Below the pieces are notes generated by a model. The model had not been told where the DNA came from. It saw only the letters and a list, made by a program, of their open reading frames with translations, and searched no databases. This document shows positions 54,966-58,739 of a DNA stretch of 64,000 bases, one piece after another (position 1 is the first letter of the stretch; each line of letters opens with the position of its first letter). Source of the stretch: Octopus vulgaris (Eukaryota); contig OX597824.1 in assembly GCA_951406725.2 (NCBI GenBank), positions 92,380,001-92,444,000 on the forward strand, read 5' to 3'. The translations under genes and the position numbers were made by a program.

Positions 54966-55664
54966 ACATATATGTATATGTATATGTATATATATATATA
55001 TATACATACATATACATACGTATACATGTATATACATGTATATACACACACACACTCACACACACACACACACACACACACACACGCAGACACATACACA
55101 CGCAGACACACACACACATGTATATATTACGATATCAAACAGATCATCGAATGTTGTCTGTTACAGACCAGTGATCAAAATATTCTTAGCATTTTTGTAG
55201 CTTTGTAATGATGCCTCCTCGCCGATAATTCTGACAGGCCAGCATTCCACCTGAACCGAATTCCCGTCTGCACAGCGTTAGCCATTTGCCGCTAAGTGCA
55301 GCAGACCATATTGATATGAATTCTTTTGCTCAAAAGCACAACACCCCTGAGAATTGAAACCGTGACCTCGCACTCGTGGTTGCAACATTTTAAACTCTTT
55401 ACACACCCGTGTGCGCACACGTATTCACGAATACACAACCATATACACAGTGATATAGGATGTGTATGTGTATATCTATGGGCATTTATTTATGCACACA
55501 TATGCACACACATTAACACTTGGATATATGCGAAGAAAATATTAATATGTAAATATAATAGTGCATAAAATTTCGAGTTATTTCCATGGACTCAGAAATA
55601 CTGAAGGAGCACTGCAATAAGTGTGTTGAATAAAATTATGATTAAGTGATTCTCCTGTATTTTT

Positions 55665-56194
55665 CAGAAATATTAAATTTCTAAATGTCTCAAAGAGACA
55701 TGAGTGGTGGTGGAGCGATAGAGTGGTTGTATACTGTCACATTAACGTGACAGTCCCGTATGGGAATTACACCACCGCTGTTTAGCCCTAGGAAGCGTCG
55801 AAAGCTTCCTGTGTCCTGATATTTGTGAAAGGGAGGCAAACACCCCCAACAGCCAAGATTCACACCTGAGGACATGCATGTTTCTAAGTCTTAACCCGTC
55901 ATCAGCCCAGGATAGTGAGATCTGCTGATTGAGGTGCCTTTCCAGCCTTCACAAATATATTTACAGTGAAATCTATTCACTGGTTAACCGTAATCAGAAA
56001 TATTAAATTTCTAAATGTCTCAAAGAGACATGAGCAGTGGTGGGGCGATAGAGTGGTTGTATACTGTCAACTTAACGTGACAGTCCCGTATGGGAATTAT
56101 GACGGGTTAAGACCCAGAAACATGCATGTCCTCAGGTGTGAATCTTTGCTGGTAGGGGTGCTTGCCTCCCCTTCACAAATATAAGGACACAGAA
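55665..56194 (-). mobile_element. Hammerhead-containing retrozyme-like element, family 2 (330-bp monomer + ~105-bp redundancy + inverted segment), 11-bp TSD
   Basis: Direct repeats at 55664-55769 and 55994-56099. 56099-56194 is the reverse complement of ~55808-55902. TSD CCTGTATTTTT at 55654-55664 and 56195-56205. Confidence 0.87.
55865..55911 (-). ncRNA. Type I hammerhead ribozyme
   Basis: CCTGGG-CTGATGA-CGGGT TAAG ACTTA-GAAA-CATGCATG-TC-CTCAGG with palindromic stem III ACATGCATGT. The inverted partial copy at 56099-56136 has the better stem II GGGT/ACCC. Confidence 0.82.
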
Positions 56195-57987
56195 CCTGTA
56201 TTTTTATTTTACACAAAATATATTTATTTTACACAAAGTCAGAAACTTTTCAACACCCCTCATACATATTTGAGCATTTCAGTAAAAAGGAGATCCGATT
56301 CTTCAGAGCGAAATGGCGACAATTGGAGGTCTTTGAGTCTTGAAAGAAATAACAGTGTATAATGGACCACTGCAAGATTAGAAATCCCAAACTGAAAAGA
56401 TATGTTTTTACTTCCATTTAAAATTTTCATCTGATTATATTATAGACCTCGCATCTTATCAACATTGTCTGCGAAAAACTCAGGCTCTTAAGAAACGTCT
56501 ATATTTATTCCTGGCGCTGTTTTAACAACGACGCGTCCAAGTTCCAATAAAACGATGCTGTACAAGTTTGTAGTGATATTAATGCTGAAATTTGTTTAAT
56601 CAATATAATTTCTTTGACAGATACGAGATCATATATTGGGTAAAGTCGAGAGAGAAATTAAACTGTGACAATTATTTTTGTTTGTCTCTTGAGTCCAAAG
56701 TTTATATTTTTCTTCTCTTGTATATTTTATGTGTTTGACTACGACTCACAAATTAATATTTGTATACATGTAAGCTTACATATACATATATAAGCATATA
56801 TACAAACATATATACACAGAAACAGACACACACACACACACACATATATATATATATATATATATATATATATACACACATAAAAACACATACACACACA
56901 TTTATGTATACATACGTATTATACTTAGCGGATATTTGTTGGTGAATAATCAAGGGTTGTACGACATAATTATATGTTTTAAATTAAGAGGATAGAAACC
57001 CACACGACATATATGATGTACAAAGATGAAGCGAACGCCCAATGGGACGAAATATCGTCTTTGATTCTGCGTCGTATAAGCCACTTCAATTTAACTCTTA
57101 CAGTTCAATAATATATACACGAAAACATTCATGCACATACACGTATACAATGTTTGTATACATAATACATAAATAGATAATTACCAATATATAAAAAAAA
57201 TGTGCGTGTGTATTTACGTATATATACGCAGATAAGTAGTCAACTTTGTATATAGTTAGGTATATATGAGTGTTGAGTTGCAATGTGGAAGGTACTTAGT
57301 TTATTAGTTTAATGTAATAGTTGGCTTTTTATCATGAGTTTGTGTTTTACGAGGTATGAGGCAATAGTTACTAGGGTGATAATGTAGTGCCCCTTAGGGA
57401 AACGCGTATGTGCGTGTGTTCGCATCTGTAAAGCAGGTGTTTCATCGTAGATGACTGATTGAAAGTCTAAACTGATTAAATTGTTTACGTGTGCATACAT
57501 ACATATATATATATGTGTGTGTGTGTGTGTGTGTGTGTTTATATATATATAATAGAAACATACATACATACATACAGAGAGAGAGAGAGAGAGCGGGAGA
57601 GAGGGATGGAGATTGGTACAAAGATATAGGTAGGTAAATATACATGTATATATATATATATATATATATAATACACACACACACACACACACACACACAC
57701 ACACACACACACATATATATATATATATATATATATATATATATATATGTGTATATATGTATATGTGTATATATATATAATGATAAATCTCAGAGAGAGT
57801 TATAAACAGTAGCGGTAACACATCGTGACGTGTATTTGCCATTTGAATATGGCTAACCCATAAGGGTGGATGCTACTGTAGTTTGTAGCCCCAGGAAGAT
57901 ATCTCCTCCAGCTGACTATAGACACACTATCTGTGTCCTCTCAGTATTTGTGAAGGGGAGTCATCCTCCCGTCTTCAACTCATAATA

Positions 57988-58034
57988 CACACGGACCCGA
58001 GTTTCAAGGTGTTTGTTTACCTTTCATCAGCGTG
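57988..58034 (-). ncRNA. Minimal type I hammerhead ribozyme, stem I shortened by the inversion junction
   Basis: CACG-CTGATGA-AAGGT AAACAAAC ACCTT-GAAA-C TCGG G-TC-CGTG. Confidence 0.8.
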
Positions 58035-58192
58035 ACAAATATGCGTCACGATGTGTTACCGCTACTGTTTATAACTCGCTCTGAGATTTATCATTGTTTG
58101 ATTTCACTTTTTCAATATCAGTGTCAATCGACACTGGAAAAAGTATATGTATTTGTGAAGGGAGCTGACTTCTCGTTGACAACTATGATTGT

Positions 58193-58237
58193 CACACGCT
58201 GATGAAAGGTAAACACCTTGAAACTCGGGTCCGTGTG
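58193..58237 (+). ncRNA. Minimal type I hammerhead ribozyme, canonical core
   Basis: Stem I CACACG/CGTGTG, CTGATGA, stem II AAGGT-AAAC-ACCTT, GAAA, short stem III C-TCGG-G, and GTC triplet. Predicted cleavage after 58231. Confidence 0.9.
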
Positions 58238-58739
58238 TATTATGAGTTGAAGACGGGCAGGATGACTCCCCTTCACGGATACTGAGAGGACACAGATAGT
58301 GTGTCTATAGCCAGCTGGAGGAGATATCTTCCTGGGGCTACAAACTACAGTAGCATCCATGGGTTAGCCATATTCAAATGGCAAATATGCGTCACTATAT
58401 ATATATATATATATATATATTAGTAGTGAGTAATATTCTCGTAGCCCCTGTAACCGTTTGCACATGAATAATTTTGAAATATGTTTGAGATATACCATGG
58501 CTTTTATATATAAATATCAGACAGCGAATCATAATTTCAGTTATTACAAGATCACTGAAGTAAAAAACAATGCGAATGTTTTAATTGAAAGATCATCATC
58601 AGCCGATGGAACTTTCTTATATGGACTAGATCCTCTGCCAGTTAATGATGGCCGTGCATTTACGCAGCTTGGCAGGTTGGGATCGTGGGGGGGGAGACTT
58701 GTATTCTTTAATGAATACAAATTTTCATTTGATGATACT

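Follow-up and report, generated by a model that had tools for sequence, protein, structure and literature searches.

A conserved RNA domain beside the hammerhead of Octopus vulgaris non-LTR retrozymes, and the two sites at which their copies end

The window analysed here (64,000 nt of Octopus vulgaris contig OX597824.1, positions 92,380,001 to 92,444,000) contains insertions of ~350-nt non-coding units with a type I hammerhead, which belong to a single superfamily of non-LTR retrozymes. The family 1 insertion (55665..56194, minus strand) consists of a partial unit (56099-55994) and a whole unit (55993-55665) ending at site B, one of two sites, A and B, at which copies of the superfamily recurrently end; an inverted 5′ piece lies on the plus strand (56100-56194), and an 11-bp target-site duplication (CCTGTATTTTT) flanks the whole at 55654..55664 on the left and 56195..56205 on the right. 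Read along the minus strand, the whole unit has a 7-bp hairpin, P0 (55964..55982), a rod, or stalk (55820..55959, approximate ends), bearing the type I hammerhead core with a palindromic stem III (55871..55905; predicted cut after GUC at 55871), and a 3′ domain comprising helices P1-P8 (55666..55817), with P5 at 55754-65, P6 at 55736-51, site A at ~55716-22, P7/P8 at 55666-99 and site B at 55665. In this copy a ~21-nt deletion has removed the 3′ strand of P1 and the 5′ strand of P2, and hammerhead stem II is weakened to G-U pairs.

Family 2 has a period of 352 nt and is represented by an inverted arm (57779..58034, minus strand), with a hammerhead core (57994-58030), a complete 3′ domain and a site B end against (TA)n, and by a one-unit arm (58037..58395, plus strand) with a site A end against (TA)n. 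The latter carries the 'tail' between sites A and B (58050..58098, including the 3′ strand of P4 at 58061-68 and P7 at 58075-85), P0 (58119..58136), the rod (58149..58281) with its type I hammerhead core (58199..58231; predicted cut after GUC at 58231), and the 3′ domain as far as site A (58287..58395), in which P1 (58289-305), P2/P3 (58308-340), the 5′ strand of P4 (58347-54) and P6 (58367-82) are present. A further family 2 insertion (15000..15431, minus strand; hammerhead 15216-15248) has microsatellites on its flanks. Two relics lie on the plus strand: a 5′-truncated copy of an older subfamily, F4 (17509..17700), with the 3′ end of the stalk and the whole 3′ domain, which scored 144.9 bits in a domain-model search whose training set included it, and a very diverged 3′ domain (10776..10941; 66.3 bits, E 1e-10) from outside that training set. 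The motif AGGACACAG occurs at five places within the window, CCTRGGGCT at 55784-92(-), 57887-95(-), 58331-39(+) and 17577-85(+), and the small hairpin, P5, at 55754-65, 56084-95 and 57856-67.

The initial annotation described families 1 and 2 as divergent families that share the same ordered elements. All of these are present, and their order is identical when each family is read in the hammerhead sense, which is the minus strand in family 1 and the plus strand in family 2. The 7-bp and small hairpins are real, but three had been given antisense, namely the small hairpin of each family and the 7-bp hairpin of family 1, and the small hairpin ascribed to both families is missing from copy 58037-58395 after a 6-nt deletion. 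The long stem TATTTGTGAAGG/CCTTCACAAATA is perfect only in the family majority and imperfect in both window copies (58269-80 reads CCTTCACGGATA in family 2), and the relic placed at 17510-17625, which does keep CCTRGGGCT, extends to ~17700 and has no hammerhead. Divergence is borne out by ~50% identity over the 3′ domain, yet the families are homologous, linked by intermediate subfamilies.

Genome-wide, the joint motif has 3,612 exact matches against 0 for a reversed control (3 in the window against 0 in 100 shuffles), in a set that was collected by motif and from which families more diverged than family 3 may be absent. A hammerhead core with stems accompanies the unit in all eight families having upstream sequence; short head-to-tail tandems, within the 150-450 nt of non-LTR retrozymes, have periods of 342-364 nt in four families and reach six units at one locus (L201); and the units have no coding capacity and no LTR, PBS or PPT, the last two judged by eye. 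The initial annotation recognised no match for the extra domains; the element as a whole is recognisable as a non-LTR retrozyme with a Penelope insertion footprint. Metazoan non-LTR retrozymes are similar (Cervera and de la Peña 2020, PMC7229834; Li et al. 2026, bioRxiv 10.64898/2026.07.22.740005), being 350-360-nt non-coding tandem units (350-390 nt in mussels) with a type I hammerhead, dispersed as monomers to hexamers, with strong self-pairing, long target-site duplications where visible and co-occurring Penelope-like elements (PLEs).

No PLE or element-borne ORF of at least 170 aa adjoins the units in 110 loci, the ORFs beside them being merely unrelated LINE and DNA-transposon fragments. 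Rfam returned no match over the window at the gathering threshold and only microsatellite or chance matches by E-value, and its hammerhead models gave the units no score. A tRNA-derived SINE or Pol III unit was rejected in the absence of conserved A and B boxes and of any Rfam tRNA match, and a viroid-like replicon was rejected since the hammerhead motifs of the window occur in the unit sense only, not in both polarities. SECIS elements, pistol and twister cores, the tRNA T-arm and CR4/5 were dropped on comparison by eye with their consensuses. A metagenome scan gave 34 motif matches, which we treat as chance because the domain model upheld none of them. Contigs from four runs, which we guess to be RNA, cover the unit and reveal no strand, level, circles or ends; no record holding the unit is listed as RNA.

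In all eight of these families the hammerhead, a predicted self-cutting-type RNA motif judging by its sequence, sits atop a 42-49-bp rod. The 5′ arms of the rod are only 38-80% identical between families with pairing kept, and native arms form a far stronger duplex than swapped ones (-59 versus -31 kcal/mol). The rod tip, where the ligation junction lies, is about 50-60 nt from P1. Among predicted Xenopus retrozyme dimers, eight of nine showed no cleavage in the study of Li et al. (bioRxiv 10.64898/2026.07.22.740005).

The 3′ domain (~165 nt, P1-P7) adopts a like fold across 14 subfamilies: P2/P3 and P6 are present in all 14 subfamily majorities, P1 in 13 and P5 in 11, and P4 and P7 in each of the 12 that possess a tail. 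The internal loop of P2/P3 is conserved and, like the loop of P6, resembles a protein site. Selection on a structured RNA beyond the ribozyme had been proposed at the outset, with covariation named as the check, and it is supported by covariation, column conservation and a neutral-decay control. On alignments built from sequence only, a tree-aware test finds 15 same-branch co-changes against a null of 5.2±1.9 (0 of 2,000 null draws), 13 of which preserve the pair, and slid registers fall close to the null; in 18 single real copies both sides have changed in 10 of 28 pairs (38 cells versus 14.8±3.5). P4 is the helix with most compensatory change, and conservation is higher in paired than in unpaired columns (0.85 versus 0.71), as the proposed comparison of motifs with spacers required. 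An excess of G-U over A-C cells (36 versus 18) and a lower consensus energy in the sense than the antisense strand (-21.3 versus -13.9) point to RNA of the hammerhead strand; fold z-scores hardly separate the strands (-5.9 versus -5.8 in family 2). RNAalifold on the 18 copies recovers P4 alone, and circular MFE folds of single real units partly refold the domain in families 2 and 3 (two of four units).

Private mutations of single copies serve as a neutral control, covering P1-P3 and P6 of an anchored helix table: they strike paired and unpaired sites alike (2.1% versus 1.7%) and keep the pair in 26 of 104 cases, so post-insertion mutations disregard the structure. Between families, 17 of 65 changes break a pair on the anchored alignment and 33 of 77 on sequence-only columns, the latter partly at misregistered marginal pairs; because the anchored table was out of register at P4 (three families) and at P7 (two families), statistics were taken from the sequence-only columns instead. 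That nothing beyond the hammerhead is selected, with the motifs inherited from a common ancestor and the hairpins arising by chance in a repeat richer in GC, would accord with the homology of the families, the modest z-scores of the domain by itself (-2.8 and -1.75) and a structure derived from the same sequences on which it was tested. The tree-aware co-changes, the neutral-decay and arm-swap controls, and pairing-consistent differences also found in runs of two other organisms speak against it, and this explanation is disfavoured to the point of being the most improbable we considered.

AGGACACAG, CCTRGGGCT and ATTTA are nearly invariant. P1, P2 and the AUUUA motif hardly vary either, so that they contribute few covarying pairs and might be motifs of the DNA. 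Internal promoters have been reported for hammerhead satellites (PMC2220036), of snRNA type in newt satellite 2 and for Pol III in schistosome repeats, and units such as these need some transcription, so the invariant blocks might be DNA-level internal promoter elements to which the helices are secondary. Compensatory and G-U-type changes are unexpected for DNA motifs, however; a B-box-like GTTCGA is confined to some family 1 subfamilies, within a variable loop; and P4, P6, P7 and the rod are left unexplained. We consider a promoter role improbable as an account of the domain, although some invariant residues may still work at the DNA level.

Copies end at two recurrent positions. Among 100 copy 3′ ends, 53 fall at site A, a linker inside the P4 multiloop, 42 at site B, directly after P7/P8, and 5 elsewhere; the sites are ~50 nt apart, with a tail of 45-57 nt. 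Their positions relative to P6, P4 and P7 are constant in four families despite differing local sequence. Two arms are present in 48 of 85 loci, and 40 of these 48 pair an A end with a B end; none is AA or BB within the end windows used, and one (L060) becomes A+A if the A window is widened by 1 nt. Across 63 motif-chosen copies, 40 run across the hammerhead cut site and 3 begin near it. Insertions lie in (TA)n or AT-rich flanks. Two fixed 3′ ends with a tail, an inverted 5′-truncated arm with the tail at one end, and AT-rich or (TA)n targets with target-site duplications of variable length are together what PLE mobilisation would leave. The initial annotation, with its hairpins and stem, had missed these two ends, and also P1-P4, P6 and P7 as helices.

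No end clusters occur within P1-P6 among the 100 copies, P1-P3 being outside what could be sampled because the motif searches required them. This bears on a second, undescribed ribozyme of cleavage or ligation in the domain or in P1-P3, for which compact conserved helices, invariant loop residues and the lack of an Rfam match might be cited. The absence of such clusters, of any known-class core by eye, and the hammerhead already present in the unit make it very improbable.

Of the three roles first offered, RT recognition fits best, given that the 3′ ends of copies lie within the domain or immediately past it; ligation and promoter function found no positive evidence. We infer that the 3′ domain probably docks a Penelope-like RT from an autonomous element and presents its two start sites, although P1-P3, which lie 55-115 nt upstream of site A, may have another role. 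Tandem units would be transcribed and monomers cut out by the hammerhead; these would likely be circularised by a host ligase, as has been demonstrated for retrozymes of coral, mussel and axolotl. The 3′ domain would then be bound by a Penelope-type RT-endonuclease, which would nick both strands of AT-rich DNA and use one of them to prime at internal site A and the other to prime at B, yielding back-to-back arms that differ by the ~50-nt tail; copying beyond the cut site would give tandem units. A PLE RT studied in vitro (PMC11167929) begins at two internal sites, which delimit a 'tail', and elongates from either strand; the RNA that it requires runs from +20 to +172, with a start at +111-118, a span about the size of the 3′ domain around site A.

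The pLTR and 'tail' of PLEs (Craig et al. 2021, PMC8557442; Frangieh et al. 2024, PMC11167929) are alike in 5′ truncation, an inverted 5′ arm, partial tandems, an optional tail at one end, (TA)n targets (Neptune/Naiad), and a hammerhead upstream of internal start sites on a template uncut at the hammerhead. The units differ in having no ORF, in a tail of 45-57 rather than 30-40 nt, and in start sites set among several helices with phylogenetic support, in place of the one AC-rich stem-loop of the published element. The same genome holds young Neptune families with intact open frames of 781 and 775 aa, whose copies end within (TA)n at paired sites separated by ~38 and ~46 nt, and which carry minimal hammerheads, unlike those extended here on a ~50-bp rod. 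The suggested comparison with Penelope pseudo-LTRs gave no sequence link: the model detected the 3′ domain in the terminal repeats of none of the sampled autonomous PLEs. Its two model matches in 45 GIY-YIG loci are both separate insertions, and 17 loci picked for tandem or pLTR-ORF1 junctions had none with filters off. The sampling rested on GIY-YIG and RT searches, with 150 of 6,136 candidates scored, and comprised Neptune-type families only, Poseidon-type not among them; the Neptune pLTR-ORF1 junction was located from the ORF1 side, and a pattern search past one tail gave one uninformative match. Units as the pLTR of an autonomous PLE were rejected, with neither an adjacent RT and GIY-YIG ORF nor shared terminal-repeat sequence in the 45 and 17 loci. 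Xenopus retrozymes, by comparison, are tied to pLTRs by sequence according to Li et al.

The sampled Neptunes thus initiate at two sites although they lack the domain, and none of them stands out as the partner. This favours an account that keeps the retrozyme and Penelope-type mobilisation but has the domain serve RNA metabolism through host proteins (circle stability, ligation, localisation or restraint of the hammerhead), the RT picking A and B from local AT/AC-rich single strands. Cervera and de la Peña (PMC7229834) proposed that the ribozyme is blocked in circles by some unknown mechanism and showed RtcB ligation, and the protein-site-like loops of P2/P3 and P6 lie upstream of site A. Yet in four families that differ in local sequence A and B hold their places with respect to P6, P4 and P7, P4, the helix richest in compensatory change, encloses site A, and the ligation junction is at the rod tip, away from P1. 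We think a purely metabolic role unlikely and retain RT docking.

Published accounts of metazoan retrozymes give MFE folds and propose PLE mobilisation; in their available text, supplements aside, which may show similar domains, a conserved covarying domain outside the ribozyme and fixed paired 3′ ends are undescribed. Pelamoviroids (reviewed in PMC11722881) likewise join a ribozyme-bearing rod to a multibranched domain in a ~350-nt circle, a resemblance only, since the units here are genome-encoded, have a one-polarity hammerhead and integrate as DNA, with no kissing loops found.

These findings bear on how Penelope-like RTs select their RNA and two internal start sites, and on PLE mobilisation of animal retrozymes, so far a hypothesis. 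Penelope-like RTs are telomerase's closest relatives, and telomerase RNA is a structured RNA in which an internal stretch of single strand is positioned as the template of a TERT/PLE-clade RT. The likeness is one of analogy only, as the units have no pseudoknot, CR4/5 or H/ACA match (Rfam blank) and the whole retrozyme RNA is copied, not a short template. We speculate, tentatively, that the superfamily may have acquired by evolution a scaffold RNA of its own, which resembles telomerase RNA in function, is unrelated to its partner's terminal repeat, and captures a dimeric Penelope RT in trans, offering site A in the P4 multiloop to one active site and site B behind P7/P8 to the other; such an arrangement would explain why each arm uses one site. 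The natural divergence of 14 subfamilies delimits a compact RNA domain, supplies compensatory variants ready for use and gives the start sites to the nucleotide; since the genome also contains young intact PLE ORFs and an in vitro assay is available, both questions are directly testable. If portable, the domain would provide a handle of ~165 nt by which PLEs could insert RNA circles, and the scaffold RNA, if real, would for the first time define a PLE RT recognition element in structural terms.

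The window lies in a 2.8-Gb animal genome rich in microsatellites, and all of the motifs that the initial annotation listed for its two families of ~350-nt non-coding hammerhead units (families 1 and 2) were found there. The shared order of elements also holds: in the hammerhead sense, a 7-bp hairpin (P0) is followed by a long rod with a type I hammerhead at its tip, then AGGACACAG, CCTRGGGCTA, and a small hairpin. Family 1 is represented on the minus strand by an insertion (55665-56194) that includes an inverted 5′ piece and is flanked by an 11-bp target-site duplication, and family 2 by two back-to-back arms inside (TA)n at 57779-58034 (minus strand) and 58037-58395 (plus strand); the window copies of both families are partly decayed. 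A model of the ~165-nt 3′ domain found other superfamily members at 15000-15431, 17509-17700, and 10776-10941, and Rfam gave no match to the window elements. Another abundant repeat family, with tandem units of 184-263 nt, occupies 18269-18640 and 31992-32731.

First-look DNA searches gave 2,629 candidates for family 2 and 1,824 for family 1 (40 scored for each), and a joint motif had 3,612 genomic matches, compared with none for the reversed control. Motif-anchored copies from fetched loci (216) gave 14 subfamilies, with 12 rows fitting none. Identity between medoids in the 3′ domain ranges from 39 to 86%, and intermediates bridge families 1 and 2, which makes these two families homologous. 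A third, young family is the most divergent, with a 359-nt period, copies 97-99% identical, and six units at one locus (L201); its rod base is exchanged for an unlike sequence that still pairs fully.

When each subfamily majority sequence was folded singly, one common 3′ domain emerged, consisting of the P1 hairpin, P2/P3 interrupted by an asymmetric internal loop, P4, P7 and, in seven subfamilies, P8; P4 closes a multiloop holding P5, P6, and a ~22-nt linker. P2/P3 and P6 are present in 14/14 majorities, P1 in 13, P5 in 11, and P4 and P7 in all 12 subfamilies possessing the tail, the stretch between two fixed positions of copy 3′ ends (sites A and B). The rod has 42-49 pairs under the hammerhead in 8/8 families, with 5′ arms only 38-80% identical, and averages -59 kcal/mol natively versus -31 with swapped arms. 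When individual genomic units were folded as circles by MFE, the whole 3′ domain was retained in two of four families, and single-unit z-scores (sense strand, -4.8 to -10.5; antisense strand, -2.5 to -6.6) separate the strands poorly; both results count against selection on the structure. By eye, two conserved motifs, (C)UAAAU following P2 and AUUUA(G) following P7, look able to pair in several subfamilies (for example, 17584-17589 with ~17685-17690), which would form an outer helix enclosing P4 and P7. The L098 family (F1b), with many copies, has the hammerhead core CCGAUGA (U4 to C) throughout, lacks P5, and has a longer P6.

Selection on a structured RNA, as initially proposed, is borne out by same-branch changes of both pairing partners (15, of which 13 keep the pair, versus 5.2±1.9 under a tree null; 0/2000) and by private mutations of single copies, which are heedless of structure. 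These fall at similar rates on paired (104/4,883) and unpaired (118/7,021) sites, and the pair is kept in 26 of the 104. The tree test took the 14 majorities, sequence-only columns, and 41 alifold pairs; pairing held in 486/545 cells versus 411±11.5 under the tree null, a count inflated because the structure was derived from these very sequences, and the tally of co-changes carries more weight as a test. Control registers shifted by 1-2 columns were close to their null. Between-family changes on majorities were pair-breaking in 33 of 77 cases, many at marginal or misregistered pairs. In a sequence-only alignment of 18 individual genomic copies, P4 was the sole helix that RNAalifold recovered (5/7 pairs compensatory); 10 of 28 named pairs in these copies show two-sided change, and such changes occupy 38 cells versus 14.8±3.5 in shuffles ignoring relatedness. 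G-U cells outnumber A-C cells (36 versus 18) and the consensus is stabler in sense (-21.3) than in antisense (-13.9), pointing to an RNA in hammerhead polarity. In two other organisms (two samples), contigs show common differences at both partners of P0 pair 58122/58133 and of stem II pair 58206/58219, G-U-type differences in P1 and P3, and a P0 change at 58124 with no change listed at its partner. We conclude that the RNA structure is very likely under selection.

Among distinct 3′ ends in four families, 95 of 100 lie inside two narrow windows about 45-57 nt apart: 53 at site A, in the P4 linker, and 42 at site B, directly after P7/P8. This count leaves out copies that run on into a further unit or are truncated at the edge of a locus, and its loci came from searches requiring P1-P3 or most of a unit. 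Two inverted arms occur in 48 of 85 loci, with the arms ending at different sites, one at A and one at B, in 40, and neither AA nor BB in any; in the remaining eight, one end is unclassed, two being locus edges and three lying 1 nt beyond the A window (two would score A+B and one A+A). Flanks are mostly (TA)n or AT-rich. The hammerhead cut is not where copies end: 40 of 63 motif-chosen copies cross it and three start near it; the template was therefore either circular or an uncleaved multimer. Non-majority variants are shared 3-10 times more often within a locus than between units of different loci. In the L197 array (G000:C3:51539509-51542715) private variants recur every three units, and in L201 at alternate units, as if a multimeric circle or pre-duplicated array had been copied.

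The genome contains young Neptune-type Penelope-like elements (PLEs) with a CxxxxCxxC linker and 781-aa and 775-aa frames. They carry minimal hammerheads and have two ends, set within (TA)n and separated by ~38 and ~46 nt, a two-end footprint that the retrozymes share with the sampled Neptunes. A model search did not find the 3′ domain in the terminal repeats (pLTRs) of the sampled Neptunes; the retrozymes are therefore no mere copies of these pLTRs. A 206-aa query from the 775-aa frame gave 150/150 scored matches at 100% identity; this family (L267) is extremely young, with 4,271-nt tandems and a minimal hammerhead (core CCGAAGA), and is a good candidate for biochemistry. L141 and L211, of the 781-aa family, are intact with two ORFs; upstream of ORF1, their pLTR has what we take to be a TATA box, repeated boxes resembling CCAAT and CRE (TGACGTCA) motifs, a probable splice donor, and a minimal hammerhead of the U3-A8 kind. 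The L152/L155 Neptune-type family ends in two tandem terminal repeats of ~290-330 nt, with no hammerhead recognised by eye.

Non-LTR retrozymes have been defined, their circles and RtcB ligation shown, and PLEs proposed as their mobilisers (Cervera & de la Pena 2020, PMC7229834); minimal and U3-A8 hammerheads have been described (Cervera & de la Pena 2014, PMC4209133), and Xenopus retrozymes tied to pLTRs by sequence (Li et al. 2026, bioRxiv). The accessible text of an octopus repeat annotation (PMC13282606) does not contain the word 'ribozyme'. Our elements are very probably retrozymes. The PLE footprint comprises truncation, an inverted arm, a 30-40-bp tail on one end, and (TA)n bias (Craig et al., PMC8557442), and a purified PLE protein, a predicted dimer, nicks and extends both strands, uses two internal start sites that define the tail, and requires RNA +20 to +172, with hammerhead cleavage dispensable (Frangieh et al., PMC11167929). 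We consider mobilisation of the PLE type highly likely.

Our search, with subscription journals and supplements outside it, turned up no earlier account of a covarying domain surrounding the start sites of retrozymes or PLEs. The main rival, that the 3′ domain serves a host-factor or circle-stability role, seems to us rather improbable. We lean towards the 3′ domain being a reverse transcriptase dock and start-site scaffold, because its most covarying helix encloses site A, P7 precedes site B, and its span matches the RNA required in vitro by another PLE.
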